A DNA stretch of 64,000 nucleotides from Candidatus Omnitrophota bacterium (GTDB lineage: Bacteria > Omnitrophota > Omnitrophia > Omnitrophales > JACROU01): NCBI GenBank assembly GCA_029261035.1, contig JAJDCD010000008.1, positions 300,480-364,479 on the forward strand. The letters are read 5' to 3'. The position numbers were made by a program, and so were the translations under genes. The notes under the pieces are model-generated. The model made no database searches, had not been told where the DNA came from, and saw only the letters and a list, made by a program, of their open reading frames with translations. This document shows positions 13,465 through 62,202 of the stretch, in pieces (positions within the stretch are counted from its first letter, which is position 1; each line of letters starts with the position of its first letter).

Positions 13465-13489
13465 CAATAGAAATTATTAAATTCAACTC

Positions 13490-15736: not shown

Positions 15737-15774
15737 GAAAAAACTTTTCTTTGTTGGTTAAACAGAAAGGAAAA

Positions 15775-17974: not shown

Positions 17975-17992
17975 GCAAAAGAAAATACAGAT

Positions 17993-22651: not shown

Positions 22652-22817
22652 TGACGCTCTATTCTCCCAAAGACAATAAGGAGAAATATACCACATCTCC
22701 CCCCTGTTTCCAGTCATTAGAGGATGATTTAAGTAAACAATAACCCTAACTTTTGCGGGAGTAAGTGGTTATGAAAATAGAAGGTTTTTATAGATTTAAA
22801 GAATAAGGCGGGGTTAG

Positions 22818-25848: not shown

Positions 25849-25853
25849 CAATT

Positions 25854-27379: not shown

Positions 27380-27787
27380 TGGTGGAGGCGGAGGGAATTG
27401 CACCCTCGTCCAAAGAAATTATTAAAAGAGGTCCTACATGCTTAGTTTTTTCTTTTAATTTAACCGCTTAAGCTCCGAAAAAACAGGATCAGAAGCAGCG
27501 ATTCCCTTTAAAGTTTCGGAACAAAACCAGAGACCTGTTTTATTCCTATCCTGCTAAATTACATCTAAAAGCGCCCGCAGGCTGAAGCTAATAGATGTCG
27601 CTGAACCTAATTAGGCAGCGAGTGGTAGAGCAACAGGAGCAAAATTCACATTGTGAAGTTCTACTCTGTCACCCAGACTGATGTTCTTATCAGCATTTAT
27701 GTTTTGTGAGGTGTTTTAAGAGGCCTCCCCACCACCTCTGCATGCACGCTCTTCCACTAACATTCTCTGTCGATGCTAGTCGCCCCC
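27380..27787 (-). ncRNA. ssrA: tmRNA (SsrA)
   Basis: 5' GGGGGCGACUAGC… pairs with 3' …GGACGAGGGUGCAAUUCCCUCCGCCUCCACCA (tRNA-like acceptor plus T-arm). Internal tag reading frame …NFAPVALPLAA followed by UAA UAG. Adjacent to smpB. Confidence 0.85.
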
Positions 27788-44658: not shown

Positions 44659-44735
44659 GGTGGGCGTAGCTCAGTTGGTAGAGCCCCTGATTGTGGTTCA
44701 GGTTGTCGCGGGTTCAAGTCCCGTCGCTCACCCCA
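44659..44735 (+). tRNA. tRNA-His (anticodon GTG) with encoded G-1 and CCA
   Basis: G-1:C73 extra pair, acceptor GTGGGCG/CGCTCAC, anticodon loop TTGTGGT, T-arm GCGGG-TTCAAGT-CCCGT. Confidence 0.85.
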
Positions 44736-46546
44736 TTTGATACCCTCGGACGAACCGGATCTATTAATCCGGTCGTCGGGTTAAATTCCCGCGGCGGTCT
44801 GCCTCTTCCTTGAGGTTGGCCGCCATTTTGGCTAAACTTTAAGCGCTTCGCATTATTCCCATAGCACTTGCCAATTTCTTCTAAAGTTTCAGCCCAAATT
44901 TTTGTCAGACTGGTGTCAATCGCTGGTTTACAAAATAAACCTACAGTAATTTCTCCCGTCCAACTTTTCCTATCATAAACTTTACAAACCGCGTATCTAA
45001 TGAAGCCTGATAGTAAACTTTTCAACTTTTCCGGTTTATCTTCGCATGAATCAACAATCATCTCGAAAAGTTGAAGCGTTTGAATTTGTTCGCGAGCATT
45101 TCCTGCAAGCCTCGTCTCAGCCTTTAATTCCTGATCGAGTCTCCGTTCTTCCTGGTTGAGCTCGTCAATCTCTGTTTGCAATGCCCGGAGTCTATCTTTC
45201 ACGGTCTCCACCCCACAAACCCCCTTATCTGCTAGCACCTCAACTAAATTTTGAATCTTCTGTTCCGTTTGAGGCTTTAGGGCACGTACGCGAATCAAAT
45301 CTTCATCGAGATCTTTGATTCGGGAGTAACTGGCTTTATTAGCTTTGTTTATCACCTTTTCAATAATAGTGGGTCTCAACTTTAATCTTTTAAGAAATTC
45401 TATAACTGCTTGATCAATCGATTCAGCAGGCACATAAACACTTTCGCATTCTGCGCCGTCTGATTTGTCTGCCTTCGAGCACAAATAATAAGGGTAATAA
45501 CGTTTAACTCTCGATCCACCTATACCCGGTTTTGGCACCATTGATGATTGACAGCTTGGACATCTTAAAAGACCTTGCAGCAGATACACATATTTCTTTG
45601 TTGCATCAAGAGTTTTTCTGCTGTGATTTGTTTTCGAATTGCTCTTGATAATGTTTTGAATCTTTTCGTATACCTTCAGGTCCCGAATAGGCTTCCAGTT
45701 CCCGACGTAACGCTTTCCCTCATAATCCTGGTGACCTGCATACCGAATATTTTGAAGGATTCTTAAAACTTGCGGTTTTGTATAGGATTTACCACGTGGG
45801 GTCTTGTATCCCAGCCTCCTGAGTTCGCGAGCTACTTTATTTGAGCTTTCATGTTGGATATAAAGTCTGTCTATTAAATTTATATGTTTCTTAAAATTAT
45901 TATGAATTAGAAAAGTATGGTGACCATTCTTATCTCTTGTCATTTTATATCCAATGGGTGGTGAGCCAAGAGGACGTCCCTGCTGTACGTGTCTTACGTT
46001 AGTTTCTAAACTATACTGCGAAATGCGATCTGCTTGCCACTGCGCAAGATTGGCATGGTTACGCATAATCATTTGGCCATCAGGCGTTGATGTATCAATG
46101 TCTAAATCGAGACAAACTAATGCAACTCCGGACTCATTAAATTGTCCTGAAATCTGAATGTAATCTAGCAAGTTTCTGGCAATGCGATCCAGCTTTGTGA
46201 CCACAACCACATCAATCAAGCCGCTCTTTGCAAGCAGAAGCGCTTGCCTTAACCCCTCGCGTCCAAATATGGTCGTCGCCGTTTTTCCTCGCCGTTCCCC
46301 CTTCTCATTCTCGTTTTCAACAAAGATCTCCGTCAGCATCCACTTCTGAGGAGTTAGCATGGTGGATTTCGCTTTTACCCAGTTAGCGAGAACATCCTTC
46401 TGATGATCTAAGGATTCGCCAATCTTTTTCGCCTGCTTGTCTGATGACACCCTTGTAATGCCAAAGACACGAATAGTGTCCTTTTCTTTAAAGCTGTCAA
46501 TCGTTGTAACATTTTGCCATCTTCTTCGTCTCTTTCTCATGCTCAC
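44714..46546 (-). CDS. Large serine recombinase (resolvase domain, recombinase domain, zinc ribbon, coiled coil). C-terminus overlaps the tRNA-His 3' end
   Basis: GITRVSSDKQ catalytic Ser motif. DIDTSTPDG…LAQWQ. Cys-rich CPSCQ…C…C zinc ribbon. ORF stop lies inside the tRNA. Confidence 0.85.
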   Translation of the reverse strand: MSMRKRRRRWQNVTTIDSFKEKDTIRVFGITRVSSDKQAKKIGESLDHQKDVLANWVKAKSTMLTPQKWMLTEIFVENENEKGERRGKTATTIFGREGLRQALLLAKSGLIDVVVVTKLDRIARNLLDYIQISGQFNESGVALVCLDLDIDTSTPDGQMIMRNHANLAQWQADRISQYSLETNVRHVQQGRPLGSPPIGYKMTRDKNGHHTFLIHNNFKKHINLIDRLYIQHESSNKVARELRRLGYKTPRGKSYTKPQVLRILQNIRYAGHQDYEGKRYVGNWKPIRDLKVYEKIQNIIKSNSKTNHSRKTLDATKKYVYLLQGLLRCPSCQSSMVPKPGIGGSRVKRYYPYYLCSKADKSDGAECESVYVPAESIDQAVIEFLKRLKLRPTIIEKVINKANKASYSRIKDLDEDLIRVRALKPQTEQKIQNLVEVLADKGVCGVETVKDRLRALQTEIDELNQEERRLDQELKAETRLAGNAREQIQTLQLFEMIVDSCEDKPEKLKSLLSGFIRYAVCKVYDRKSWTGEITVGLFCKPAIDTSLTKIWAETLEEIGKCYGNNAKRLKFSQNGGQPQGRGRPPREFNPTTGLIDPVRPRVSNGVSDGT

Positions 46547-46590: not shown

Positions 46591-46887
46591 TTATCGCATT
46601 ACTTTTTCCATACAATTTTCCGCCCATATTTCACTTAGCAAATCAATAATTTCTTCAATTCGCTCTTCATGATCCAGTAGGTTAAAGGGGTTCAGCGGAT
46701 TATCTTGCAACGCCTTATATTCATTATTACCTGCTATGCGCACGACAAAACATCCCCTACGCATTTTTAGGGGCTTTCCCTTCAAACATTTTTGTGGGAA
46801 AGGCATTTTCTTCTCCCTCTTTTTTGATCTTGCGATATTAATCACCTCCAAAGGTTTGAATAGCAAGACAACAGCCTTCAGCCTCAC
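46591..46887 (-). CDS. Small basic hypothetical protein (possible recombination directionality or regulatory factor)
   Basis: Position next to the recombinase only. No recognisable motif. Confidence 0.3.
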   Translation of the reverse strand: MRLKAVVLLFKPLEVINIARSKKREKKMPFPQKCLKGKPLKMRRGCFVVRIAGNNEYKALQDNPLNPFNLLDHEERIEEIIDLLSEIWAENCMEKVMR

Positions 46888-46920
46888 TGTTTGTCAATGA
46901 GACTGAAAGCTGATATTTTT

Positions 46921-47505
46921 TTAAACAAAACTTATCTGATCAATATAAAGCGACCCTGCTTTTGGCCTCGAATTTACATCGTCAAAAACGATCACAAATT
47001 CATTCAGGCTAGTCCAGTCATTGATTCGCCTGAATTTTTCAAAAGGGATCGTGACTCTTTGCCATTCACTGGTAATTCCACTTACCACGTATGCGGACGG
47101 TCTCGCGCTCATGTCCTTCAATTCAATTTTTATTCGATTCGTAAACTCTTTTTCGGCATCACCCTTCACAAAAAAGCTAAGCGAGTTGAATCTGCTTGCA
47201 TCCTCACCGTTTAGCTTCATCCAGAATCCGTTATATGCTGGATTCACAGAATCGACATCGTAATCCAATCTCACGGAATAGCCTGCCGAATCACCTAACG
47301 CATCATCCGGTTCAAAGGATAATTTCGTTCCTTGGGTATCATCATAAGGATCTTTATCCCAGGCTCCGAAATCACCTCCGATATTATTTGGTTTGTCTCC
47401 GGTATCAAAATCAGCTATCACGAGTTCGCTTTGTGCTGCGTTTACGACCGGACTAACCATCGCAAAAATCGCCATGACTAAAACAGCTGCGGTTTCTTTT
47501 TTCAT
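46921..47505 (-). CDS. Secreted CBM-like β-sandwich domain protein (paralog of the N-terminal domain of 31998-34148)
   Basis: ATG 47503-47505 with signal peptide MKKETAAVLVMAIFAMVSPVVNA. Shared motifs AWDKDPYDDT, YDVDS, GFWMKL, SEWQ, YIDQISFV. Confidence 0.7.
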   Translation of the reverse strand: MKKETAAVLVMAIFAMVSPVVNAAQSELVIADFDTGDKPNNIGGDFGAWDKDPYDDTQGTKLSFEPDDALGDSAGYSVRLDYDVDSVNPAYNGFWMKLNGEDASRFNSLSFFVKGDAEKEFTNRIKIELKDMSARPSAYVVSGITSEWQRVTIPFEKFRRINDWTSLNEFVIVFDDVNSRPKAGSLYIDQISFV

Positions 47506-47530: not shown

Positions 47531-48079
47531 TTAAAATATTGAAACAATGGAACCGAGGGTTCCATACTTATGCTTCGCCATGATCTTTCTGAATTCCGGA
47601 TCATTCACAAATTGCTTAAGCGCATCCTTCACAAGAAAGTCTGCGATGCGTTCCTTAGCTTCTGACTCCATAAAAGAATCAATCAACACCTCGTAGCCTC
47701 CTGACTTTTTCCCTTCATATTTAAGGACACCTTTTTCATTGATTACTCTGAGTTCGAGAACGAGTGCGGCTTTAACTGGCCGACTCAAGATATCCGGCGA
47801 TGAAAGCTCAAGTCCTCTCACTCTCAAGATGACCTTTTCACTATCCTTGCTTGAAACAAGTTCGATAATACCTTGCTGATCTTCATTCCTTTCAACCTCA
47901 AGACCCGTTTTAAGACCGATGTAATGAACCAAATAACGTGTAACCATATCTCGAAGACTATTATCAGTTGGGATTATCTCCTGACTCTCTTTTACTTTTT
48001 CGGTCATAACTTGGGGCACCGTGGCTGCACAGCCAATAACCAATGAGAGGAGTAATATCGCAAGACTTGAGATCCTCAT
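47531..48079 (-). CDS. Lipoprotein, hypothetical (182 aa)
   Basis: Lipobox LVIGCAAT. Confidence 0.55.
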   Translation of the reverse strand: MRISSLAILLLSLVIGCAATVPQVMTEKVKESQEIIPTDNSLRDMVTRYLVHYIGLKTGLEVERNEDQQGIIELVSSKDSEKVILRVRGLELSSPDILSRPVKAALVLELRVINEKGVLKYEGKKSGGYEVLIDSFMESEAKERIADFLVKDALKQFVNDPEFRKIMAKHKYGTLGSIVSIF

Positions 48080-49200
48080 GCTTTATTACCCTCTTCCGTT
48101 CGTTGTCTAATTTGGTGCTGCATAAAAAGATCACGGCCACGCTGAAGCTCTCGCTTGAGATCATCAGGTTTTGGGAGTTTAAGCTGATATTTTGAGACAA
48201 ATATTTTGTTACTCATGCCACCCGTGGCATACTTCACACATGCGCTACTTTTATTCGCGCACAATACAACGCCAATGGGATCGCTTTCTGCTTGTGGCAT
48301 TAAATGATCTTTTGCCCAGTTCAAATAGAGATTCATTTGACCGGCGTAAGCGTGTGTAAATCGTCCGATTTTGAGGTCCAATATCACATAACAATTTAAA
48401 GGAATATGATAAAGGACGAGATCCATTCGATACTCATCTCCATCCAGATTAAAACGCTTCTGTCGCGATACGAATGTGAATCCGGCTCCGAGTTCCAAAA
48501 GAAATCGTTCAAGGTGATGTATCAAGGCATCTTCAAGATCAAGCTCTGAATACTCATCTTTAAGATTCAAAAACTCAAGAACGTAGGAATCTTTTATTTC
48601 ATCTTCCGGCCGTACAATAATGGGATGTTCATTGGCTTTCTTTAAAACAAGATCTTTACGCTTTGACAGAGCTGTTCTCTCAAAAAGCGCCGCCTGAATT
48701 TCACGATCAAGTTGTCTTGCAGACCAATGGCTTCGCAGACACTCATTTTCATAGAATCTTCTTTTTACCGAATCATCCAACCTCATAAGCTGCCTGTAAT
48801 GTGACCAAGAAAGGCTAAAGGATCTGATCACATCACCTAATGCGGGCGCTTTGGCCAATTCGCTACACACCGTGTAGCGTTTTTCGATGCCTTTGTAGGT
48901 GAGGTAAAACTGCCGTATGGCTCTTAGATGGGCCTCACCCCACCCTTTTCCAAGCTTATGTTTAAGGTCTCCCGACAAATGCTTGAGTAAAGCCTCCCCA
49001 TAGCGAGCTCGATTCCTTCCTTTTTGCTCAAATTCCACGATCCTTCGGCCGGTCAACCAATAGGTAGCAACTAACGCAGCATTAACCTGCCTGACCACAC
49101 TCTCTCGGCCCTCATGAATTAAGGCTGATATGCTGTTGAGCAACTGCCGATAATCGTCCATCCGCACTGCGTTATTTCCTGATGATTTGAGATGCCTCAT
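48076..49200 (-). CDS. YhcG-like PDDEXK nuclease (DUF1016)
   Basis: N-terminal LVATYWLTGRRIVEFEQKGRNRARYGEALLKHLSGDL…GWGEAHLRAIRQFY is the hallmark of DUF1016/YhcG. C-terminal D…E.K-like block. Confidence 0.75.
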   Translation of the reverse strand: MRHLKSSGNNAVRMDDYRQLLNSISALIHEGRESVVRQVNAALVATYWLTGRRIVEFEQKGRNRARYGEALLKHLSGDLKHKLGKGWGEAHLRAIRQFYLTYKGIEKRYTVCSELAKAPALGDVIRSFSLSWSHYRQLMRLDDSVKRRFYENECLRSHWSARQLDREIQAALFERTALSKRKDLVLKKANEHPIIVRPEDEIKDSYVLEFLNLKDEYSELDLEDALIHHLERFLLELGAGFTFVSRQKRFNLDGDEYRMDLVLYHIPLNCYVILDLKIGRFTHAYAGQMNLYLNWAKDHLMPQAESDPIGVVLCANKSSACVKYATGGMSNKIFVSKYQLKLPKPDDLKRELQRGRDLFMQHQIRQRTEEGNKA

Positions 49201-49778
49201 GAAAGAGTGCCTCCCTTCACAACAGAAACTTCTTTCAAAAACAACACACCTTTTTTGGGCCTTGCGTGGATATCATCAATCACAATCTCAAATGTCTTTA
49301 CCTCTGACCAATCCCGGATTCTTCTAAATTTCTGAAGAGGGACTTCAAATTCCTTCCATTCGCTTCTTACTCCTGACAATAAATAGGGCGCTTTACGATT
49401 ATCTTTATCCGTAAATTGAAGTGCTATATTGCCAGTGAAGGGCGGATCGCTTTCAGCTCTCATCCAAAGATGAAGCGATTCATATTCTGATAAATCATGG
49501 CCCTCGATTTTAAGCCAGAAACCTCCCATTGCAGGAAGCGAAGAATCCACATCAAAGAGCACGTCTACTTCTGCGGCGTTCGCGCTAATCTCATGTCTTA
49601 CGCTCTGCGCAGCATCGAGAATGTTATGCTCCCAGGTTCCCATCATGATCTCAGCATCAAGCCGAGTAAGATCGAGTAGATTCAGTTTTTCGTTCTCAGC
49701 ATTCGCTTGCCCTTTAAATGACACGATACATATAAAAAGGAGCAATGCCCTAGAAAGAGTTCTTAAGCACATTCGCAT
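49197..49778 (-). CDS. Secreted CBM-like β-sandwich domain protein (third paralog)
   Basis: ATG 49776-49778 with signal peptide MRMCLRTLSRALLLFICIVSFKGQANA. Motifs DVDSSLP, GGFWLKI, SEWKEF, FLKEVSVV. Confidence 0.7.
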   Translation of the reverse strand: MRMCLRTLSRALLLFICIVSFKGQANAENEKLNLLDLTRLDAEIMMGTWEHNILDAAQSVRHEISANAAEVDVLFDVDSSLPAMGGFWLKIEGHDLSEYESLHLWMRAESDPPFTGNIALQFTDKDNRKAPYLLSGVRSEWKEFEVPLQKFRRIRDWSEVKTFEIVIDDIHARPKKGVLFLKEVSVVKGGTLS

Positions 49779-50508
49779 GCCTCCTTGCCGAATCGAGAGA
49801 TTCCTTGCTTCCGATATCAAACCACGCCCCGTCAAAGTCCACCGCATAAAGTGACTCTTTCTTACTGAGCCATGCAACAAAATCTCCGATCCTGTCAGGA
49901 TTTAGTTTCTCAAGCTCAAGGTATTCATAAATCCTCATCCGGTACTTGCTTGGAAAATAATAAACACCAATGCACACATCCGTAGACTTCGGGTTCTCCG
50001 GCTTTTCTTCAAAGTCCGTAATGAGGTTATGATCATCTCGCATCACCACGCCACATAGCGATGCAACCGAAGGTTCTCCTACATCATAAATACCGACAAA
50101 GGCATTCTCAGGATCTCCGAGACACGGCAAGAGAAAATGGCTCAATGGAAAATCAAAGTAGTTATCTCCACAAAAAACAAAGAAATCATCACTCCCGCAG
50201 TATCCAGAGCGGAGTGCTAGATCGAGATCCCTCACGGCACCCAGTCTTTTCTCCGGCACAAACGCGTTATTTTCAACGATGTGAATGGGCTTCTGATAAC
50301 ATGAGTTCCTGCACCATTTATAGAAGTCCAGATAAAACTTCCCGCTAGTCACGATAATGATTTCATCCACGGCACTGACCACCTCTAGCTGTTCGATTAG
50401 AAAATCCAGAATCGTTTTATTTCCTAACTTAAGCAGTGCCTTTGGCGTATCCTCTGTAATCGGATAAAGTCTTGTTCCGAACCCTGCGGCGAGAATAATA
50501 GCTTTCAT
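49750..50508 (-). CDS. Sugar-1-phosphate nucleotidyltransferase (NTP_transferase fold)
   Basis: MKAIILAAGFGTRLYPIT…PKAL signature. Confidence 0.8.
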   Translation of the reverse strand: MKAIILAAGFGTRLYPITEDTPKALLKLGNKTILDFLIEQLEVVSAVDEIIIVTSGKFYLDFYKWCRNSCYQKPIHIVENNAFVPEKRLGAVRDLDLALRSGYCGSDDFFVFCGDNYFDFPLSHFLLPCLGDPENAFVGIYDVGEPSVASLCGVVMRDDHNLITDFEEKPENPKSTDVCIGVYYFPSKYRMRIYEYLELEKLNPDRIGDFVAWLSKKESLYAVDFDGAWFDIGSKESLDSARRHANVLKNSF

Positions 50509-50526
50509 ATAAATAAACTCCTTTTA

Positions 50527-51456
50527 TTAAGAATTAATTTTGATAGAAGCGTGCATCCCGTACCTAAAGTTCCCCGGGATTCCATCAAGTTTCACTTCAC
50601 AAGAAACCACATGCCGAATCTTAAAGACCTTCTCAACCTCTTGCGATGTGCGCGGCGCTAACCTCACAACCCGCCCTTTGTAAGTTTTTGAAGAAAACGC
50701 ATGAAACCTTGCTTTTACTTTGCTACCCACTTTAATCTTTTGCACCTCTTCTTCCGGAATTAAGACTTCAACAAAGTAGGTATCTGGGTCTGCGATCTCA
50801 AGCACAAACTCACCTTTTTGGATGGGACTCCCTATCGTGTCTGATGGGTCAGTCAAAAGAACTCCATCAAAAGGCGCTTTAAGCTCAAGAGACTCCATTC
50901 CTTCTTTGATATAATCCAATTCCCTTTTCGCAGACTGAATTTTCTTCTCAAGAATCACAAATTCCTGAGTGGCTTGAATAAAATCAAATTCTTTCTTGCC
51001 CAATTCACTTTTTCCGGTCACACCATTCTCATAAAGCATCTTGGTTCGTTCACGAACCTTGTCCAAATACTTTAATTTTTCATTCACTATCACTTTTTCA
51101 TCTTCTAATCTCCCAAGCTCTAATTCTGCTTGTGTGTGTTGCTTTAAAAGTTCGGGGTTTTCAAATCTCGCAATTAGCTCCCCTTTCGTTAAAACCGATC
51201 CCTTCTCACGCAGCAATTCTTTAAGCACTCCGGAGCTCGTAAGTCCAAGCCTCGCAAATTTATCTGCTTGGAGCACTCCATCGCCTTTAAAGTCTGCTCT
51301 TGGCCAGATAAGGAAAGAAACAACGGCTATCACTAAAATTAAAATCATCTTTCCTTTTTTGCCTTTAGCTTTCTTCTTTACCTCATGATTCTCTTCAAAA
51401 AGCTGCGGTTCATCTTTCGGAGAATCGTCCGTTGGTTCTTTATTAATTTCTGTCAT
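50527..51456 (-). CDS. HlyD-type membrane fusion protein (periplasmic adaptor)
   Basis: N-terminal TM, biotinyl/lipoyl-like hairpin (…KGELIARF), coiled coil, LKAPFDGVL β-barrel motif. Confidence 0.8.
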   Translation of the reverse strand: MTEINKEPTDDSPKDEPQLFEENHEVKKKAKGKKGKMILILVIAVVSFLIWPRADFKGDGVLQADKFARLGLTSSGVLKELLREKGSVLTKGELIARFENPELLKQHTQAELELGRLEDEKVIVNEKLKYLDKVRERTKMLYENGVTGKSELGKKEFDFIQATQEFVILEKKIQSAKRELDYIKEGMESLELKAPFDGVLLTDPSDTIGSPIQKGEFVLEIADPDTYFVEVLIPEEEVQKIKVGSKVKARFHAFSSKTYKGRVVRLAPRTSQEVEKVFKIRHVVSCEVKLDGIPGNFRYGMHASIKINS

Positions 51457-51480
51457 TTTTATCTCTTCTCCTTTTATTTA

Positions 51481-53097
51481 TTAAATCCAGTTTCTCAGTT
51501 CTTGCGGTACTGTCTTTGACGTTAGATAGACTGCCGGAATCGATAAGATCAGGCTCGTCAAAATCGGTGTTGCTTGCCAAATGAAGTAATGCACATTCGT
51601 CAAAATGAAAATTAACCCAAATACGCCAAAGGCTGTTCCTCCCCACATATACTTTGCTGTACTTGTTAAAGTGATCTTCGCAAAGGGATCTTTCAGCATT
51701 GGTTTCCAATTCAACTTCCTTAAAGGAATAGTCAAAATATCAATAGGCGCATAAACAAAATTATTAAGCGTAATAAGCGTTGATAGAAATAGTTCGTACA
51801 AATATTCTCTAAAGTCTCGCCAAGTTTTTAAAATTGTTACTTTGTGAAAAAACACGACACTAATACTAAAAATCAGAACCCATTTAAGAGTACTGTTCGT
51901 ATAAAGTCCCATCCAAATCGAATCTATTTCAAAATGAATAAGCTCACCGGTAAATTCGGAGTGGCTTAAAATCCCAAGGATTACCCAATAAAAGAAAACA
52001 AGATCAGCGAGGTAAAGGTAGATCCCGTAGAAGGCGAGAAAGCGGGTTGCTGGCGTAATACCGCGCTCAAGAACAAGCGGCCATCCTTGAAGCGTACCCT
52101 GTGCCCAACGCTTTGTTCTGGCACGCGATTCAAGATAGTTTGCCGGAGCTTCATCATAGGCGTGAACATCTGGGCAAAAGACTACCCTGTAGCCTAGTTG
52201 TCTGAGCCTGACAGTATCCCAATTATCATGAGAGAGAAGACCTTTGGGGAGACGCACCTTTCGAAGCGCCTCTGTCCTCGCAAGATGATGATGGCCAAAT
52301 GAAACTGTCTCTCCAAAAATTGCTTGAATTGCGATAAAGCTAAATTTTTGTGCAAAGTAGGCTCCTATTCTTTCAAAGCGAGAGTACCAAGTCGTTGCAT
52401 GAGCAATTCGGATAATTGCTTGAAAAATAGCGACATCCTGATTTTTAGGATGCTCAGCTTTCCTCAGTAGCTTTAAGAGCGTCCCTTTAGGAACCATTCC
52501 ATCCGCGTCACAAACGTAAATATACTTATACTCAGGATGTGAGTGGACAAACTCCCCGACATTTCCTTGTTTTCGTTCAACAGGGTTTTCACGTCTTCTA
52601 TAAAACACTCTGCCCGGATGCAATCGTTCTAGCTTTGCAACAAGATTTTTTTCATATGAAATAAAATCCTCAGAAGAATCAGAGAGTAGCCAAAGATCTG
52701 TATCAGGTAATTTATTTCCTGAAAAAGAATAATGAATCCTTTCAGAAAGGCCATGCCCTTCATTACGAATAGGATAGACGAGTGCCATTTTAGGAATTCG
52801 TTTTACAAAAGTTTCTTTTAAAATGGGTCTTCTAATAAATAGGTGAGCAATACTTAGAAGAAAAAGATAAGCTACATTGAAAAATAGAAATTCAAACCCT
52901 ACAATCCAAAGAACTCCAAAAATCCAGGTTTCACTTGTGAACACGATCCTTGATGCCACAAGCCCCATCGTAAAAAGAGAACCGATAAGAGCCGTCCCAA
53001 GAAAGAGCCGCGTTCTTTTAACGGGTGTAAGCCAATCGTTTAAATAAAATCTATTCTTCATAGTCGGTTTCCTCATAAAGAGAATATTCTTCGTCAA
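51481..53097 (-). CDS. opgH: OpgH(MdoH)-like membrane GT2 glucosyltransferase (β-1,2-glucan backbone synthase family). Start may be an internal Met
   Basis: PIRNEG, LLSDSS, YRRRENPVERKQGN, VCDADG, LLSHD, RTKRWAQGTL align with OpgH motifs PIYNE / FVLSD / YRRR..N..RKAGN / VLDADS / ILSHD / RDRRWCHGNL. Multiple TM helices on both sides. Confidence 0.65.
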   Translation of the reverse strand: MTKNILFMRKPTMKNRFYLNDWLTPVKRTRLFLGTALIGSLFTMGLVASRIVFTSETWIFGVLWIVGFEFLFFNVAYLFLLSIAHLFIRRPILKETFVKRIPKMALVYPIRNEGHGLSERIHYSFSGNKLPDTDLWLLSDSSEDFISYEKNLVAKLERLHPGRVFYRRRENPVERKQGNVGEFVHSHPEYKYIYVCDADGMVPKGTLLKLLRKAEHPKNQDVAIFQAIIRIAHATTWYSRFERIGAYFAQKFSFIAIQAIFGETVSFGHHHLARTEALRKVRLPKGLLSHDNWDTVRLRQLGYRVVFCPDVHAYDEAPANYLESRARTKRWAQGTLQGWPLVLERGITPATRFLAFYGIYLYLADLVFFYWVILGILSHSEFTGELIHFEIDSIWMGLYTNSTLKWVLIFSISVVFFHKVTILKTWRDFREYLYELFLSTLITLNNFVYAPIDILTIPLRKLNWKPMLKDPFAKITLTSTAKYMWGGTAFGVFGLIFILTNVHYFIWQATPILTSLILSIPAVYLTSKTVPQELRNWI

Positions 53098-54406
53098 AAA
53101 GCGACCTAAAAGCGGTCTTTCTATCTAAACGCGCCATTAAAATCCTATAATCTGTAACAGCCATAAGTTGATTGATCTTCGCTTCCTCTAAAGCGATAAA
53201 TGAATCAATTAGTTCACCAGCGCCACGCTCACCAGCAATAAGACGGGTCTTTTCGTTCTTATAAATCTCCCGTCTTTCACGCCGAAGCGTTTTTGCAAGA
53301 CGAACCTTTTCACGCAGCGCCCTGCCATCATGAAATAGCTTCCTTATCTCTTTTTCATGTTCACGAACCTTTATTTCACCTTCCCACTTTGTTTCTTCCA
53401 TTTCATGTTCCTTAGCTTGGATTTTGGAACCGAGTCTTCCAAAGTCCCAAATATTCCATTTCACTTCCGCGCCAACCATTGCCCTATTTGTGTCTACAAA
53501 AACATCATCGTTACGATTCCATCTCGCCGTAAGATTGATATGAGGAAATCGATCTGCCTGAAGCTCTCGCCTTTCAAACTTCTTCTCTTTCACCTTATAA
53601 TCCCAAAGCCGGTAGATAGGATCGTTCTTACGCGCAGCTTCAAGGTAATATTCCGAGTTACTCTGAAGCTCTGCGTAGTCAGACAAGGGCTCAAGGCTAA
53701 GAGATTCTCCTTGAGCAATTCCAACTGTCTCAATCAACACATCTAAAAGATAATCATAAGATTCTTTGTGTTTCACAAGCGCATGCTTAGATCTTTGAAG
53801 TAAGGTTTCAACTCTAAACAGCTCATAAAGCGGAAGAATCTCTTTATCTATTAGCCGTTTCATACGTTCGTGCGCCGTTTGAAGCTCACGAACCTGTCCT
53901 TGAGCAATACGGGTAGATTCTTTTTCAAGTAGCACTTGTGCATAAAGAATCCGAATTCCAAGTTCTACATCAAGCTTGGCCGCTTCCAGCTCAGTTTCTT
54001 CTCCCCCAACCCGAGCCTTTTGCTTTCTTTTCCCCGCAATGATTTTCCCGCCTTTAAAAAGAGGCTGCTCAATACCCGCATCAAGGTAATTCACCGTTTT
54101 CTTCTCACCCGTGGACACAGCCCCAAAAAACTCGGCAGAAAGCTTTGGAAGGAACTCTGAAAGACTTCCTTTATAAAGAGCCTTTTCTTTACGAAGTCTT
54201 GCAAATGCCCGTTTCATCTCTGCCTGATTCTTAAGAGCTCTCGTAATAGCATCATTAAGAGTAATGAGAGATCCATATCCCATTAAACCAAGCTCCTCTG
54301 CGGCCTTCGCTTTCACCGGAGTCATTAAAAATATTAAGGCAAAGACAGATACGCCTAATATTCGTATGCCGGACTTTTTCTTTGTATGTGCAAGACTTGC
54401 TCTCAT
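53051..54406 (-). CDS. TolC-like outer-membrane efflux protein (OMF)
   Basis: Signal peptide (ATG 54404-54406). Two-repeat coiled-coil/β layout typical of the OEP family. Confidence 0.75.
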   Translation of the reverse strand: MRASLAHTKKKSGIRILGVSVFALIFLMTPVKAKAAEELGLMGYGSLITLNDAITRALKNQAEMKRAFARLRKEKALYKGSLSEFLPKLSAEFFGAVSTGEKKTVNYLDAGIEQPLFKGGKIIAGKRKQKARVGGEETELEAAKLDVELGIRILYAQVLLEKESTRIAQGQVRELQTAHERMKRLIDKEILPLYELFRVETLLQRSKHALVKHKESYDYLLDVLIETVGIAQGESLSLEPLSDYAELQSNSEYYLEAARKNDPIYRLWDYKVKEKKFERRELQADRFPHINLTARWNRNDDVFVDTNRAMVGAEVKWNIWDFGRLGSKIQAKEHEMEETKWEGEIKVREHEKEIRKLFHDGRALREKVRLAKTLRRERREIYKNEKTRLIAGERGAGELIDSFIALEEAKINQLMAVTDYRILMARLDRKTAFRSLFDEEYSLYEETDYEE

Positions 54407-54461: not shown

Positions 54462-54734
54462 TTATCCCGCGAGTTTTTCTCCGAGTTTCTTAAACCCTTT
54501 CAAAAACTCTTCTGGTTTCTCCGGATAGGGAATTCCTCTTTTTTGCGGGAGCATAATGTCTTCCTTACGCCCCTTCTCAAAAAACCGCATATCACCGACC
54601 GTTTGACCATCAATTTCAACTACGGAAAATCGGAACTCTTCACCATCTCCTGTTGGAATCACATGAACGATCTCTTTTTGCACGATCTCTCTTTGCTTAA
54701 ACACCCGCTTCGTTCTTTGTTCTGTTTTTGCCAT
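54462..54734 (-). CDS. Small hypothetical protein (90 aa)
   Basis: ORF between trbI-like and OMF genes. No signal peptide. Confidence 0.35.
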   Translation of the reverse strand: MAKTEQRTKRVFKQREIVQKEIVHVIPTGDGEEFRFSVVEIDGQTVGDMRFFEKGRKEDIMLPQKRGIPYPEKPEEFLKGFKKLGEKLAG

Positions 54735-54758: not shown

Positions 54759-55721
54759 TTAAATTGCTTCAAGCAAAATCACTTGAATGGGAGTGTAGGA
54801 CTCCACGGTAATGCTTTTCTCCACGCGTGCTTCTCTCAAATTCTGGCGTGCTTCATCATGAAGATTCTGTGAAACATTCAGCCTGAGCTGATCTTCCAAG
54901 CTATAGGGGTCACGCCCTCGTCCCCCAAGAAAAAGAGAACCTACTGAAAGCACAGACTCACCAATAGCTTTTAATACTTTCCTGTCCGTGTGCCGATCCA
55001 CATCACCTTGTATTCCTGCGGCCCCGTCCTCAGAAAGAGCCAGAGCTCGCACACGAACCTCACGACCGTCCGGTAAGATTAAGAGATCAAAGCTGACATT
55101 AATCCGGTCTAAGGACTTCACAACATCTGCTTCTCCAAGAAATCGTGCCCCCTTCGGAATCACCACTTCATCTCCGTAACTGAAATCCTTGGGAAGAATT
55201 GCCTGAACCGGTGCTCGGACGTTAAAAGAAAATATACGGTCTGAAAGAAGCGCAGGAACCTTTGTTCCTGACGGCAACCCGAAACTGAACTCCTCTTTTG
55301 TCTCTCTGAGACGCATATTTTTCTCTTCCTCTGGTTTTGAAACAAAAACTGCAATCTTTGTGTCATATTTTCTTTTTTTGCGTTCTGCTCGGATCTCATC
55401 GGATCTTCTCTTAACCTTTTTGGTAGACCGTGAAGATTTTTTAATCGCCTTTTCCATCGATTCTGCCGTCATTACAATCCTGCCTTCTTCAACCGGAGAA
55501 ATTTTCATTTCTCCTTTTGTTTTTTTAGAACGCGGCGAAAAAACAGAGAACGAGAGAAACACAACGATTAATATGAAAACTACAAATAAAACAGGCCGCT
55601 TTTTAATTGCCTCTTTAAGGCTTTCTGCTTTTTCTCTTGGACCGTCTGGTGAATCAAAAAATTGTTTCTCTGGCGGTCCCTGTTTTTTCTTCTGAGCTTT
55701 CTTAAAAAAATCTTTAAACAT
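54759..55721 (-). CDS. trbI: T4SS VirB10/TrbI-like protein
   Basis: N-terminal cytoplasmic region, TM, linker. C-terminal …VIPKGARFLGEA…LSEDGAAGIQGDVDRHTDRK matches the TrbI/VirB10 barrel domain. Confidence 0.75.
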   Translation of the reverse strand: MFKDFFKKAQKKKQGPPEKQFFDSPDGPREKAESLKEAIKKRPVLFVVFILIVVFLSFSVFSPRSKKTKGEMKISPVEEGRIVMTAESMEKAIKKSSRSTKKVKRRSDEIRAERKKRKYDTKIAVFVSKPEEEKNMRLRETKEEFSFGLPSGTKVPALLSDRIFSFNVRAPVQAILPKDFSYGDEVVIPKGARFLGEADVVKSLDRINVSFDLLILPDGREVRVRALALSEDGAAGIQGDVDRHTDRKVLKAIGESVLSVGSLFLGGRGRDPYSLEDQLRLNVSQNLHDEARQNLREARVEKSITVESYTPIQVILLEAI

Positions 55722-55748: not shown

Positions 55749-56771
55749 TTATTCAAACCACTTAAATCCCTTAATCTCAATATCTCGCTTTTTGCCCATC
55801 TCACTATCCTCAAGAATTCGAATAAATGGTTTTTGCTTCTTTCCAAGTACCCGGTAATCAAAAACAAGCACACCATACTCATAGGCATCCGGAGAGATTG
55901 TTTCAGGAAGCTCAAGTTCTGACGGAAGCTCAATAACACCCGTCTCTTTATTTCTCAAAAACTTCCTTTCATGACTCACAGCCCCAACTAAAACCTTCAG
56001 TACCTTGAATGGCGTTCTTGAGTAGTTAAGAACCGAAAATCGCAGATAGGCTTTATCTGCAACTTGAGAAAGGGACAAAAGATTTACCTGCACATCTTCC
56101 TCTGCCTCAGATTTACGAAGCTCTATCGTCTGAACGCCTGAGGCCACCTTCTCAAGTAATTTTTCCTCAGAAAGCTTTTCTGCCTGTTCATTAAGCTCTT
56201 CAGATCTCTCCTGATAAACCTCTTCAAGCTCGTCGGTCTTTTCTTTTACTCGCTCCTCGAAGGCATTCTTAACAAGAGCTTCATCTTCTTTGGGCAATCT
56301 AAAATCCAGTACAAAATCAGCAGTATCCGGCGGACCAACTGACACATCAAAAGCAAGACGATTAGATGCCGTTACAATCACAAGGTTTGAGCGAGCGTCC
56401 GTTTCATCTGTAATAGGCTTTACAAGAACCTGCCGCTCATAGACTTCAACCTTAAAAAGTTCCTGATCTCCAACAAAAACTTTTTGAGCGGGTTCAGGCA
56501 AATCAATCGTTGACACATAACCAAGCGCTGTTTGAAGACGAAAAGCAACCGTAGAACGCATCGTGACCTTGTAAATATTTTGTGTAGTACGTTTTAGTTT
56601 GTTAAATGTTTGGCGAATCTTGAGCGGGTCTGATTTCTTTTCAGTCTCTGAGAATACCCCTCGCTCAAGAGTCATAGGTTCGTTTCCATAGGCTATAAAA
56701 ATTGGTCCTAAGGCTAAAACCGCACATATGAGAACGCTTGTAAGAATTAGTAAACGTGATCTTATTTTCAT
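55749..56771 (-). CDS. trbG: T4SS VirB9/TrbG-like protein
   Basis: Signal peptide. N-terminal YKVTM…YVSTIDLPEPAQKVFVGDQELFKV…VLVKP…SNLVIVTASNRLAFDV fits the VirB9 N-domain pattern. Confidence 0.75.
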   Translation of the reverse strand: MKIRSRLLILTSVLICAVLALGPIFIAYGNEPMTLERGVFSETEKKSDPLKIRQTFNKLKRTTQNIYKVTMRSTVAFRLQTALGYVSTIDLPEPAQKVFVGDQELFKVEVYERQVLVKPITDETDARSNLVIVTASNRLAFDVSVGPPDTADFVLDFRLPKEDEALVKNAFEERVKEKTDELEEVYQERSEELNEQAEKLSEEKLLEKVASGVQTIELRKSEAEEDVQVNLLSLSQVADKAYLRFSVLNYSRTPFKVLKVLVGAVSHERKFLRNKETGVIELPSELELPETISPDAYEYGVLVFDYRVLGKKQKPFIRILEDSEMGKKRDIEIKGFKWFE

Positions 56772-57424
56772 TTTTCTTCCTCCAATTTATTGAGTATGAT
56801 TTCTTTATAATTCTCTACAAGAAGACCCGATGAGGAAGATCGCGTACGCCTTACCTTCTTTAAAACGAGTTCTGCTTTGAACAAACTTGACTCACGATAA
56901 TCAGGATCGTTATAGTTAAAGAGGGTTCTCACTCCGACAAGTGAGACAAAAGCAAAATCGTCTGTCTCACGCTCCACTTTTTCCTCTTTAAATTCAATCC
57001 GGGCATAGAGGCCTGTTCCCTGAAACTTCACAAGAAAACCAGAATCTATGAGATCTCGATTCGCAATCTTCCGGTATCTGGATGTCATCCAGTTCCAGGC
57101 ATACTTTGTCTCTGTAAGCGCATAAGAATTAAGCCCTCTGAATTTCTCTACGAAAAATGTTGAGAATTCAAGAATCTCCACTTCGCTCGGATCATTGTGG
57201 GACTTTATATTTTCAATCACTTCTGCTTTACCTACCTCATTAACCCGAATCACCAGAGGTGGACGTGACATCACCATTAAAAGTGCAGCAATCAAAATAA
57301 AATTGAGTCCTATTGACATAAGGTTTGTGCTTTTCAAAAATTCGTTAAAGACTTCGTAATCCGCAAATACCTCGTAATATTTCCTTTTCATGTTCTTTAG
57401 TTTTTCCTCAAATCTTGTTTTCAT
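56768..57424 (-). CDS. trbF: T4SS VirB8/TrbF-like protein
   Basis: Bitopic: cytoplasmic N-terminus, one TM, approximately 150-aa periplasmic domain. Gene-order position. Confidence 0.6.
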   Translation of the reverse strand: MKTRFEEKLKNMKRKYYEVFADYEVFNEFLKSTNLMSIGLNFILIAALLMVMSRPPLVIRVNEVGKAEVIENIKSHNDPSEVEILEFSTFFVEKFRGLNSYALTETKYAWNWMTSRYRKIANRDLIDSGFLVKFQGTGLYARIEFKEEKVERETDDFAFVSLVGVRTLFNYNDPDYRESSLFKAELVLKKVRRTRSSSSGLLVENYKEIILNKLEEEK

Positions 57425-58311
57425 TTATAAGTTCCTCCTCCTGAAGTGGCGGATGATCCGGCCCGGCCCGCAGCTCCGGCAGCACCACCCGCAAAACGAT
57501 TTCCAGAGGTCGCAGGACGAATTATGTAGCGTCCCGTAACAGCAGCGACCGTCCCTAACACAATTGAACCTAAACCACCTATGCTCGGCCCACCGACAAA
57601 TTGGTTAGTCATGATCGGAACTAGAATGAAAAGCACGATAAAAACAATATTTGCAGTTAGAACTACCAAGAAGTTGGTGTCTTCGGCTGCATAAATTGCC
57701 GTAAGATTCATGACCGATATGACTTTCATGAGAATGGAAAGAAGAACCTTCCAAGCAGAGATTGCAACAAGACTACGTATCCACGCATCGAGCCCGCGAG
57801 AGCTGACTTTGTAAACCGCCATTCCTGCTACGATGGGTCCAATTAAATAGAGTGCTGAGAGAAGCGCAAATCTCAGAATAAAGTTTGCACCAAGCACCGC
57901 ACCGGCGATTGCGTATGTGACATAGTTCATGACCGTTAGGGAAATTCGCTGATCAAATTTCCAAAAATATTTCCAGTCAAATGGAGCATCAAAGAAAGCT
58001 TTTGCAGTCTCGCGGAATTCTTCATGCGGAAGAATTGAATCCGCCAACAGATCCATACCGTAAACAATCATGATAAAAAAGCGGTCGTACATAATGAGAA
58101 GGCCTGCAATAAGCAATACCCTCAGAAAAAGTCCTGTGTAATCAGACTTCCCTTTCATTGCTTGTACGTTTTCGTGAAGTATTGCTACGATGAAAAAGAA
58201 TGAGAATAAAACAAATGAAAGTCTCATAAGCAATGCGAAAGGTTGCTCAAAGAGGTTTGGAATTTGAAGAACATTAGTAAATAAGAATCCGTGATTAAAT
58301 CCTGAAAACAT
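57421..58311 (-). CDS. trbL: T4SS VirB6/TrbL-like polytopic membrane protein
   Basis: 5-6 TM helices. Gly/Ala-rich C-terminal tail typical of TrbL. Confidence 0.6.
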   Translation of the reverse strand: MFSGFNHGFLFTNVLQIPNLFEQPFALLMRLSFVLFSFFFIVAILHENVQAMKGKSDYTGLFLRVLLIAGLLIMYDRFFIMIVYGMDLLADSILPHEEFRETAKAFFDAPFDWKYFWKFDQRISLTVMNYVTYAIAGAVLGANFILRFALLSALYLIGPIVAGMAVYKVSSRGLDAWIRSLVAISAWKVLLSILMKVISVMNLTAIYAAEDTNFLVVLTANIVFIVLFILVPIMTNQFVGGPSIGGLGSIVLGTVAAVTGRYIIRPATSGNRFAGGAAGAAGRAGSSATSGGGTYK

Positions 58312-59082
58312 TTAGAGAGCACCTCCCCCATAAAGCGTACTAAGACCTTCCGCAAAGTCAGAGGAATCCTCTAAAAACTTAACCTTTTCTCGTTCTATGC
58401 GTTTTTCTTCTCGCGTGACCTGTTCTATTTGAGTCGCTTGAAGTTCCAACATTTTCGCGAGAACTTCTTGATTCTGCTGTTCAAGAACCATAAGACGAGA
58501 GACACCCTGAACTTGTAACCTAGCCGCACCTTTTGGGCTTGCGTTCTTTGATTGACTCTGAATTAAGTCCGCAGCATCCCGTGTTTTTTGTCCTGACTCA
58601 CGGATCTGCCCTGCCAAATGAAAGGCATCTACAACTTGAGATTCTTCAAACATGATGTAGGAACGGGCCTCAGTGTCCGGTATTGCGCCTGTCACTGACT
58701 CAAGCGCATTCCGGATGTCCTGAGGAGTACCCCCGCTACCTAACACTTCAATATTGGGTGTGATAAAACCAGCATCAAAAAAGAAATCTTTAAGGCTTCC
58801 TCCTTGATCCATGAGGCCTCTAATAGAATCACCAATTGTGGAATCAAATATTTCGTCTAGACCCGAATGAAAGCGAAATGTTTCTAGGGTTTGGGCTTTG
58901 AGTTCGCTAAGACGATCTACAGCAAGCCCAATTTCTTTGACCCACTTCGCTTGCATAAGAGTGTTTCTAAGCACATTAATCGCGGTGTTAATGGGGTCAT
59001 TAAACGTATAAGCTTTTGAAGCGGGCGTCATTAAAACCATACATAAAGGAATGAGGATAAGAGCTTTCTTCAATTGCTTCAT
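58312..59082 (-). CDS. T4SS VirB5/TrbJ-like secreted α-helical protein
   Basis: Signal peptide ending SKAYT, helical repeats. Position between VirB4-like and VirB6-like genes. Confidence 0.5.
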   Translation of the reverse strand: MKQLKKALILIPLCMVLMTPASKAYTFNDPINTAINVLRNTLMQAKWVKEIGLAVDRLSELKAQTLETFRFHSGLDEIFDSTIGDSIRGLMDQGGSLKDFFFDAGFITPNIEVLGSGGTPQDIRNALESVTGAIPDTEARSYIMFEESQVVDAFHLAGQIRESGQKTRDAADLIQSQSKNASPKGAARLQVQGVSRLMVLEQQNQEVLAKMLELQATQIEQVTREEKRIEREKVKFLEDSSDFAEGLSTLYGGGAL

Positions 59083-61598: not shown

Positions 61599-61873
61599 TC
61601 AAACACTTCCTCTTTTCTTTCTCGTTTAATCAGATATCGCTTTGGCCTCAAAAGGAACTTCACCAAAGAACTAGTCCAATGAGGCGGCTTTCCTCTTTTA
61701 TAGGCTCGTAAAAATAAATAGACTCCTATCATGACAACTAGGTTCACCAAAAGATCTTTTGAAAATGTGAACACCAACCAAAACACAAAAAACAAAAAGA
61801 AGAGGTCAAAGAACTCCAAGCCAAAAAATTTATTTTTATGTTGAATCTTGTTATGTCCTTTAACTGTCTTCAT
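61595..61873 (-). CDS. trbD: T4SS VirB3/TrbD-like small membrane protein
   Basis: 92 aa with a hydrophobic core. Directly upstream of, and overlapping, the virB4-like gene. Confidence 0.55.
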   Translation of the reverse strand: MKTVKGHNKIQHKNKFFGLEFFDLFFLFFVFWLVFTFSKDLLVNLVVMIGVYLFLRAYKRGKPPHWTSSLVKFLLRPKRYLIKRERKEEVFE

Positions 61874-61884: not shown

Positions 61885-62202
61885 TTAAAAATTTGTAAGT
61901 CTCTCCAAAATATCAAGAAGCGCTCTACTCAAAAGCATGATCGCTCCCCCGAGTGCCACTAGCCCAAATTTTTGAGCTGTCCTACTGTCTCCAAAAATAA
62001 CCGCCGCGCCGGCCAAACAGATCCCAATAATAAAAAGCGGGCCTGCCACGGTATTAATCAGGAAGTCTCCGATCCCCGAAAGAAAATCTATGAGATCTGC
62101 TTCTGAGGTTGCCTCAGCAAATGCAAACCTTGCATTAAACAAAAGCATTCCGGTAAACATGAGTGCCTTATGAATCATTTTTTGTTTTTCTCGGTCTCTC
62201 AC
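61885..62202 (-). CDS. trbC: T4SS pilin VirB2/TrbC-like
   Basis: 105 aa: long signal peptide followed by two hydrophobic helices (…PLFIIGICLAGAAVIFG…GLVALGGAIMLL). Confidence 0.6.
   Translation of the reverse strand: MRDREKQKMIHKALMFTGMLLFNARFAFAEATSEADLIDFLSGIGDFLINTVAGPLFIIGICLAGAAVIFGDSRTAQKFGLVALGGAIMLLSRALLDILERLTNF

Follow-up and report, generated by a model that had tools for sequence, protein, structure and literature searches.

The idea that a polysaccharide synthase can stand in for the pump of a tripartite, TolC-dependent exporter is recent and thinly supported. In Sinorhizobium meliloti, tolC is genetically essential for production of a mixed-linkage glucan, and a tripartite BgsA–BgsB–TolC complex has been proposed (PMC13438883). 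For cyanobacterial cellulose, a model by Maeda et al. (2018) combines XcsA with the HlyD-like XcsB and TolC, as recounted in a passage of a 2025 review; that passage notes that no single operon encodes the three proteins and that experimental validation is lacking, and it names the non-operon arrangement as an open question (PMC12430437). The concept thus draws on tolC genetics in the one case and on an unvalidated model in the other. Here, we analyse a 64,000-nt stretch of the genome of a Candidatus Omnitrophota bacterium (hereafter the window), in which a TolC-family outer-membrane factor (OMF), an OpgH-like glycosyltransferase family 2 (GT2) synthase and a HlyD/EmrA-type membrane fusion protein (MFP) are encoded side by side, followed by a sugar-1-phosphate nucleotidyltransferase, within a type IV secretion system (T4SS) operon on a mobile element. 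We consider it likely that OMF, GT2 and MFP act as one functional secretion unit, and on balance we favour a self-contained, synthase-dependent machine that spans the envelope and secretes a polysaccharide.

The cassette works like the Bgs and Xcs systems and is a member of neither family. Like Bgs, it combines a membrane GT2 synthase with a HlyD-type MFP gene and a TolC-family channel. However, BgsA is described as being activated by cyclic di-GMP through a C-terminal domain (PMC13438883), which the window GT2 lacks. In S. meliloti, tolC lies outside the bicistronic bgsBA operon, whereas the OMF gene here is itself a member of the operon, its end overlapping the start of GT2. The present synthase is OpgH/Cgs-like, and a mobile element carries the whole set within its T4SS operon. 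The Xcs model likewise places an MFP and a TolC-like channel beside the synthase instead of BcsB and BcsC, and its glucanase XcsC recalls the GH144/GH189-type enzymes described below; in contrast to Xcs, the three genes are here contiguous and co-conserved. A preliminary description of this DNA had called the synthase–MFP–OMF architecture atypical of known exporters; it overstated the novelty, and the XcsA–XcsB–TolC and BgsA–BgsB–TolC proposals make that view out of date. What is new is the operon-encoded triad, the OpgH lineage of its synthase, and its embedding in a T4SS-bearing integrative element with links to a carbohydrate-binding module (CBM) and to GH189/GH144-type enzymes. Literature searches for OpgH paired with an MFP, or for exopolysaccharides encoded by integrative and conjugative elements with mating-pair functions, returned nothing, and no description of the cassette or of the element family was found in the searchable literature, that on Omnitrophota genomes included.

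An OpgH-like synthase encoded with an adaptor and an outer-membrane channel

The cassette that we examined spans positions 49750–54406 of the window, to which all coordinates refer. Every gene from 44.7 kb to 63 kb lies on the minus strand, and the four cassette genes, closely packed, are read in the order OMF, GT2, MFP, nucleotidyltransferase (Table 1); Pfam and NCBIfam matches confirmed all four where the preliminary description had placed them. The end of OMF and the start of GT2 overlap in an 11-nt string, ATGAAGAATAG, that holds the stop codon of the one and the start codon of the other, with GAGGA upstream, and the 24-nt spacer between GT2 and MFP contains AAGGAG. As had been claimed, OpgG and OpgD genes and an ABC transporter are missing: Pfam searches found no ATP-binding cassette (ABC), resistance–nodulation–division (RND) or major facilitator superfamily (MFS) gene in the element part of the window, and no OpgG/OpgD gene was found there, nor OpgG, OpgD or OpgC in related loci. 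A pump immediately beside the triad, which the preliminary description had allowed for, was also not seen; T4SS genes lie upstream, the nucleotidyltransferase, a CBM-like gene and a YhcG nuclease gene lie downstream, and related loci are alike. The operon contains no gene for a tetratricopeptide-repeat (TPR) plus β-barrel porin of the BcsC, PgaA or AlgK–AlgE type, and its outer-membrane component belongs to the OEP/TolC family, in contrast to the Bcs, Pga, Alg and Pel systems. A TPR protein at 13490–15736 is chromosomal, 30 kb from the cassette. A reading of the cassette as a known defence system has no support, PADLOC giving no match for OMF, GT2 or MFP.

The GT2 is homologous to OpgH. Its nine best NCBIfam matches are all MdoH/OpgH models (top E 5e-47, 160.4 bits), BLASTP against Escherichia coli OpgH gives 28% identity over 298 aa (E 4e-20), and hhalign aligns the two with 99.9% probability (E 5e-35) across OpgH residues 234–706. 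The full OpgH/MdoH motif set reported earlier is present, every quoted motif aligning to E. coli OpgH: PIRNEG at 97, LLSDSS at 125, YRRR at 154, RKQGN at 163, CDADG at 184, LLSHD at 275 and RTKRW at 315. The corresponding catalytic motifs (PIxNE, DSD, YRRR..RKxGN, DAD, LSHD and RxRW) are invariant or nearly so across 42 homologues. This homology covers the catalytic and C-terminal transmembrane regions; the N-terminal roughly 230 residues of the 847-aa E. coli protein have no counterpart in the 526-aa GT2, which by alignment thus appears to be a minimal OpgH. The annotated relatives on plasmid records, among the matches listed, are all named mdoH, and in an identical database protein the called gene starts at the MKNRF methionine. 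All nine MdoH models, however, score the GT2 under their equivalog cut-offs, the lowest of which is 328 bits. Because it fails these thresholds and differs from OpgH in both partners and architecture, the protein is OpgH-like and not a bona fide OpgH: of the identity first proposed, homology and motifs stand, and the equivalog assignment does not.

Two N-terminal and about five to six C-terminal transmembrane helices surround a GT-A domain, and the AlphaFold2 model (predicted local distance difference test (pLDDT) 92.7) is that of a membrane-embedded GT-A synthase. Its best fold match is Cgs (TM-score 0.71–0.73, normalised to the query), followed by BcsA (0.62) and, below these, hyaluronan, plant cellulose and chitin synthases. 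With a profile as query, the PDB yielded only Cgs/NdvB (E 6e-10); single-sequence PDB searches with the GT2 and with the OMF gave no match, so that the GT2 needed the profile. Among the NCBIfam models, none for BcsA or cellulose synthase scored. The GT2 thus groups with OpgH/MdoH and Cgs and not with cellulose or chitin synthases, as the preliminary description had anticipated. A weaker Pfam match is to Glyco_transf_21; Pfam finds no PilZ or other extra or regulatory domain, the C terminus consisting of transmembrane helices. From the model, the GT2 is predicted to be a processive, channel-forming synthase. It is not an orthologue of BcsA, nor probably of BgsA, as OpgH and Cgs are nearer and the BcsA fold match is weaker. 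A chromosomal CHASE2–GGDEF diguanylate cyclase (10968–12749, minus strand) has no apparent link to the cassette, whose GT2 lacks PilZ. In a related locus (L061), the gene of a small PilZ protein follows a non-mobile triad at a distance of about 5.6 kb.

OpgH and Cgs are therefore the two nearest characterised relatives, and both make β-1,2-glucan. Alongside the shared catalytic domain, motif set and C-terminal transmembrane region, the GT2 differs from OpgH/MdoH in lacking the N-terminal extension, in its sub-cut-off scores, in having MFP and OMF partners and in falling in a separate clade. Cgs offers the best solved-structure match to the GT2 and its transmembrane module, and the Omnitrophota genome encodes homologues of the Cgs cyclization (GH189) domain. 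Cgs, however, is a single polypeptide of about 2800 aa in which the synthase is fused to the cyclase and further domains, as against a 526-aa stand-alone synthase, and the GH189-like proteins here are separate, with signal peptides and a CBM. Cgs also includes a GH94 phosphorylase domain, and its product is exported through the ABC transporter ChvA/NdvA.

The OMF has a Sec-type signal peptide and two OEP repeats; it scores with the TolC model TIGR01844 (E 2e-19, under its cut-off), and its probable start is 54406, the mechanical open reading frame running to 54427. The MFP also matches HlyD_D23 (E 4.5e-13) and TIGR01730 (E 3e-21) and comprises an N-terminal transmembrane helix (residues 37–51), a coiled-coil hairpin and a β-barrel domain, with no recognisable membrane-proximal domain. 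Its best PDB matches are EmrA and MacA. Adaptors of this transmembrane-anchored type serve pumps without large periplasmic domains. The hairpin tip, R137-x3-L141-x6-G148, resembles the R-x3-L-x6-S TolC-binding motif, and several more divergent homologues carry serine at its last position. The two-OEP-repeat OMF and the anchored hairpin and β-barrel MFP are like those of EmrAB, MacAB and HlyBD, and both proteins also score with RND, ABC and MFS adaptor models; in contrast to those systems, no ABC, RND or MFS energising component is present and a glycosyltransferase occupies that position. The nucleotidyltransferase, which follows the MFP in most T4SS-linked loci, has as its best PDB match the glucose-1-phosphate thymidylyltransferase 3hl3 (E 5e-18).

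Co-conservation of the triad

The survey of related loci (numbered with an L) took in seven annotated loci, GTDB species representatives supplied another 48, and neighbours were detected with hidden Markov models (HMMs) made from the window's own proteins; loci are counted as testable when enough flanking sequence remained after removal of duplicate contigs. Roughly 120 GT2 homologues were found, nearly all in Omnitrophota metagenome-assembled genomes (MAGs). An MFP gene adjoins GT2 in every testable locus (44/44) and an OMF gene in 30/33, which bears out the co-conservation on which the preliminary description had staked its proposal. The triad is kept across gene orders, at least two phyla, and mobile and non-mobile settings: an Elusimicrobia chromosome (L007, GT2 38% identical) has the order OMF–MFP–GT2, L046 and L048 have GT2–MFP with an inverted OMF, and L061 (GT2 33% identical) has OMF–GT2–MFP with a 4-nt overlap, all four without T4SS genes. 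The arrangement recurs in dozens of independent loci and is therefore not due to chance. No ABC, RND or MFS gene was found in the seven annotated related loci.

Canonical OpgH genes have other company. Those of E. coli, Leptospira plasmid p74, L058, L059 and L062 are partnered with OpgG, OpgD and OpgC. No MFP or OMF gene lies beside the canonical OpgH of L062, itself about 30% identical to the window GT2, nor beside the OpgH-like genes of a Cupriavidus megaplasmid and Leptospira p74, which we used as canonical controls. Neighbour-joining places the MFP-linked GT2s in a clade of their own, separate from the canonical OpgHs, with non-mobile basal members. The OpgH superfamily thus splits by context into a branch partnered with OpgG, OpgD and OpgC and a branch partnered with MFP and OMF, and the product of the latter is presumably secreted.

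The proteins also diverge together. Identity of the GT2 to the window protein co-varies with that of the OMF (rho 0.97), the MFP (0.92) and VirB4 (0.92) over 13 points that are not phylogenetically independent. GT2 is the best conserved of the element proteins compared, with a mean identity of 60% against 54% for VirB4; this top conservation, together with co-divergence with VirB4, rules out the cassette as variable cargo. A contiguous, overlapping and co-diverging triad across phyla and gene orders provides comparative evidence for the synthase-replaces-pump concept that is independent of the rhizobial and cyanobacterial work.

From this organisation we infer a physical complex with an export function. 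In the proposed mechanism, the nucleotidyltransferase would provide an NDP-hexose, most likely NDP-glucose, which the GT2 would polymerise at the cytoplasmic face while threading the chain through its own transmembrane channel. The membrane-anchored MFP would enclose the periplasmic exit and dock onto the TolC-like trimer, and the polymer would be extruded through the OMF to the cell surface. Polymerisation itself would drive export, the synthase replacing the ABC, RND or MFS pump of ordinary tripartite systems. The product would most likely be a β-glucan, within this scheme probably β-1,2-linked, to which the operon's secreted CBM11-like proteins would bind and which secreted GH189/GH144-type enzymes with the same CBM module could remodel.

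Candidate glucan-binding and glucan-modifying proteins

The CBM-like and GH144-like proteins of the preliminary description proved to be two CBM11-like proteins in the element and two PF10091 proteins on the chromosome (Table 1). The two CBM11-like paralogues, a and b, are 32% identical. The CBM_11 match of paralogue b falls under the Pfam gathering score, and its AlphaFold2 model (pLDDT 85.6) has as its best fold match the Clostridium thermocellum CBM11 1v0a (E 2.7e-9). In L041, a homologue of paralogue a lies between VirB10 and OMF. Paralogue b is very widespread, unusually conserved and not restricted to the element, with more than 1000 database homologues (the best 120 at 62–100% identity) compared with about 120 for GT2.

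The same module occurs in the chromosomal proteins. The protein at 31998–34148 has a signal peptide and an N-terminal CBM module (CBM HMM E 3e-35), and its PDB matches are the TiCGS cyclization domain 8wy1 (E 2e-42), the Cgs cyclase (E 6e-36) and the GH144 enzyme 5gzh (E 6e-7); the protein at 24013–25908, also with a signal peptide, matches the Cgs cyclase region (E 7e-16) and has a partial CBM module at its C terminus (E 1e-8). Proteins of 1234 and 1281 aa in L046 and L048, about 4 kb from the non-mobile triads, join the module to a PF10091 domain (E ~1e-36), with GH144-type β-1,2-glucanases as their nearest matches. GH189 domains cyclise linear β-1,2-glucans (PMC10834661), and GH144, GH162 and GH189 have been named as the families that act in β-1,2-glucan metabolism (PMC12102758). 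Because the CBM11-like module is fused to GH189/GH144-type domains, it is a candidate β-1,2-glucan-binding domain; the fusions suggest such binding and, by analogy, tie the synthase clade to β-1,2-glucan enzymes, much as BcsZ and XcsC accompany cellulose synthases. The β-1,2-glucan theme proposed earlier is strengthened by them. Whereas the GH189-type domain of Cgs is part of a cytoplasmic multidomain enzyme, the proteins here are secreted and stand alone, and could cyclise or transglycosylate β-1,2-glucan outside the cytoplasm. From OpgH and Cgs as nearest relatives and from the CBM fusions, which support it indirectly, we regard a β-1,2-glucan as having an even chance of being the product.

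Beside a non-mobile GT2–MFP pair in L050, an open reading frame (12852–21464, plus strand) exceeds 2870 aa and continues past the end of the locus; its product has RHS repeats, an ILEI domain and weakly matching CBM11-like modules.

A cassette within a type IV secretion operon

The cassette is the distal, downstream half of a gene array that runs in one direction from VirB2 through VirB10 (Table 1), in an element integrated at tRNA-His; this context is absent from the preliminary description. After VirB10 the array continues with a 90-aa protein, OMF, GT2, MFP, the nucleotidyltransferase, CBM paralogue a, the YhcG nuclease, a lipoprotein and CBM paralogue b. The T4SS genes between 54759 and 62202 have 4-nt overlaps or gaps of at most 27 nt, and over the whole array, where genes do not overlap, no gap between them exceeds 55 nt. 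A helix–turn–helix (HTH) regulator gene precedes the VirB2 pilin gene. A consensus scan found two strong terminators in the scanned region, flanking the array after CBM paralogue b and upstream of the HTH regulator gene, and none comparable between VirB10 and OMF or within the cassette; a sigma-70 promoter scan (18 sites, 28 expected from shuffles) was uninformative and was left unused. The order VirB4–VirB10–OMF–GT2–MFP holds in 27/27 loci with a GT2 identity of at least 44% and enough upstream sequence. Because the cassette is the distal part of the T4SS operon, it is probably co-expressed with the transfer genes.

Table 1 Features of the window, listed along the array and then outwards from it
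Feature	Position	Strand	Support
VirB2/TrbC pilin	61885–62202	-	Pfam TrbC
VirB3-like	61595–61873	-	
VirB4	59079–61598	-	Pfam TraC/P-loop_TraG
256-aa protein	58312–59082	-	
VirB6-like	57421–58311	-	Pfam TrbL (weak)
VirB8-like	56768–57424	-	Identity supported by homologues
VirB9/CagX	55749–56771	-	Pfam CagX
VirB10/TrbI	54759–55721	-	Pfam TrbI
Conserved 90-aa cytoplasmic protein between VirB10 and OMF	54462–54734	-	
TolC-family OMF	53051–54406	-	Pfam OEP E 3e-41; signal peptide
OpgH-like GT2 synthase, predicted processive, 526 aa	51481–53061	-	Pfam Glyco_trans_2_3 E 4e-16
HlyD/EmrA-type MFP, 309 aa	50527–51456	-	HlyD_3 E 2e-17
Sugar-1-phosphate nucleotidyltransferase	49750–50508	-	NTP_transferase E 2.5e-32
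Secreted CBM11-like protein, paralogue a	49197–49778	-	Survey-built HMM; signal peptide from translation
YhcG/DUF1016 PDDEXK nuclease	48076–49200	-	YhcG_C E 2e-55; PADLOC PDC-S02 E 5e-130
182-aa predicted lipoprotein, N terminus ...LVIGC	47531–48079	-	No family match
Secreted CBM11-like protein, paralogue b, last operon gene	46921–47505	-	Pfam CBM_11 E 2e-5
Intrinsic-terminator-like hairpin, 18-bp stem	46872–46912	-	Directly after last CBM gene
Large serine recombinase	44714–46546	-	Resolvase + Recombinase + Zn_ribbon_recom
tRNA-His, element boundary	44660–44735	+	ARAGORN
Chromosomal secreted CBM11-like + GH189/GH144-clan protein	31998–34148	-	PF10091 E 7e-20; DUF3131
Second chromosomal secreted GH189-like protein	24013–25908	-	PF10091 E 1.4e-11

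The 3′ end of the recombinase gene overlaps tRNA-His, and at 44 kb the GC content steps up, from about 0.37 to about 0.42. The window holds no second copy of the tRNA-His 3′ end, so the far boundary of the element lies outside it. The window stops at 64 kb; in the related element L056, the upstream part carries a VirD4-like coupling protein (weak match), RadC and the same regulator, with no recognisable relaxase. Pfam recognised neither VirB7 nor VirB11 among the window genes. The nearest outgroup T4SS, in a Pseudobdellovibrio MAG of the Bdellovibrionota (L057, VirB4 29% identical), has no glucan cassette. There, an FtsK/SpoIIIE-type ATPase follows VirB10 where the Omnitrophota elements have the cassette. 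We conclude that the cassette belongs to the backbone of a family of small Omnitrophota integrative elements and is not loose cargo. With non-mobile members at the base of the GT2 clade, the simplest account is that an integrative element of the Omnitrophota took up an existing chromosomal triad and has since passed it on as backbone. Several MAGs hold two to four element copies (L020, L022, L025 and L035 in one, L013, L015 and L024 in another), pointing to active proliferation or to bins in which strains are mixed.

The remaining array genes also recur. The 90-aa protein, which has no signal peptide, is found between VirB10 and OMF in most loci, and its HMM also matches an L056 gene (5748–6263) carrying a faint PC4 match; the protein may be PC4-like and bind single-stranded DNA, and is probably not part of the secretion machine. 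The YhcG nuclease, which matches the candidate defence family PDC-S02, and the 182-aa lipoprotein are present in many related elements. More than 20 loci have the lipoprotein downstream of the cassette, where it may serve as a VirB7-like component or in the glucan system. Elsewhere in the window, two chromosomal open reading frames encode proteins of about 1580 aa (715–5460, minus strand, no Pfam match; 17993–22717, minus strand, with a C-terminal WD40 β-propeller), and the tmRNA gene (27380–27787, minus strand) has an unusually long predicted tag peptide, ADKNISLGDRVELHNVNFAPVALPLAA.

Several observations weigh against a machine of the kind that we favour, or against a β-1,2-linked product. 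The GT2 is far under the MdoH equivalog cut-offs (160.4 bits compared with 419 for the best model), and OpgH releases its glucan to the periplasm without any adaptor. Contact between GT2 and MFP is a prediction from gene context, and co-transcription is likewise predicted from the spacing of the genes and the consensus scan for terminators. The serine of the R-L-S tip motif is a glycine in the window MFP and most close relatives, and 3/33 testable loci, all among the most divergent, have no linked OMF. As to the product, its linkage is extrapolated from GT2 relatives of just 24–28% identity, the searches assign the nucleotidyltransferase to a family and not to one sugar or nucleotide, characterised CBM11 binds β-1,4 and β-1,3-1,4 glucans and not β-1,2, and the GH189-like genes of the window are chromosomal, 13–23 kb from the element.

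These points are best judged against three other explanations. One is that the GT2 by itself makes a periplasmic glucan akin to the osmoregulated periplasmic glucans (OPGs), while MFP and OMF serve an efflux or type I system whose pump is encoded elsewhere. The homology to OpgH, which needs no adaptor, the scores of MFP and OMF with RND, ABC and MFS adaptor models and the frequent service of TolC-family proteins in several systems all fit such a division of labour. It would, however, leave unexplained why MFP and OMF stay adjacent to GT2 in 44/44 and 30/33 loci across gene orders, phyla and mobile or non-mobile contexts, why the three co-diverge and why the OMF and GT2 reading frames overlap; a mobile element tied to an unlinked host pump would fail in new hosts, and there is no OpgG/OpgD partner, in contrast to true OPG loci. 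We judge this explanation improbable. Least probable of all, to the point of being very hard to sustain, is that OMF and MFP are T4SS accessories, such as an outer-membrane conduit for a pilus or DNA, with the GT2 modifying a T4SS component or the cell wall. The cassette does follow VirB10 in the same array in 27 loci, and neither VirB7 nor VirB11 was recognised in the window, but the triad exists without any T4SS genes in L007, L046, L048 and L061, the sister Bdellovibrionota T4SS clade lacks the cassette, VirB9 and VirB10 already supply the usual outer-membrane core, and in fold and motifs the GT2 matches processive polymer synthases.

The remaining alternative keeps the triad as an exporter and changes its product to a mixed-linkage or β-1,4 glucan, another hexose polymer or a glycolipid as in DevBCA–HgdD. 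Here the sugar of the nucleotidyltransferase is not fixed by the searches, the protein nearest to the CBM in structure has mixed-linkage and β-1,4 glucans as ligands, the sole genetically supported synthase–MFP–TolC system makes a mixed-linkage glucan, and the GT2 has its weaker Glyco_transf_21 match. Set against this are OpgH and Cgs, the characterised proteins closest to the GT2 in sequence and in fold, which make β-1,2-glucan; the lack of any scoring BcsA or cellulose-synthase model in NCBIfam; the fusion of the CBM module to GH189/GH144-clan domains, whose characterised members act on β-1,2-glucan (PMC10834661); and a GT2 model with the transmembrane channel architecture of a polysaccharide synthase. 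Such a product is unlikely, though less so than a separate pump.

For the preferred reading, a synthase-driven exporter formed by GT2, MFP and OMF, the position in a T4SS operon raises the question of a role in transfer. That the triad serves conjugation is a tentative suggestion, with the odds against it. When the T4SS operon is switched on, the donor might, in a scenario that we hold to be possible yet doubtful, extrude β-1,2-glucan through the GT2–MFP–OMF duct; the glucan and the CBM11-like proteins might then, equally speculatively, glue donor to recipient or mark the donor surface for exclusion. If true, this would be a polysaccharide-based stabilisation of mating pairs, of a kind undescribed for conjugative elements. 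Likewise, if the triad works as proposed, it would be the first operon-encoded, co-evolving synthase–MFP–OMF machine on the OpgH lineage, and the four-gene cassette is compact enough for heterologous expression. The presence of so unusual a polysaccharide cassette inside a T4SS operon suggests that a surface glucan may have a role in transfer among the ultra-small, uncultured Omnitrophota.

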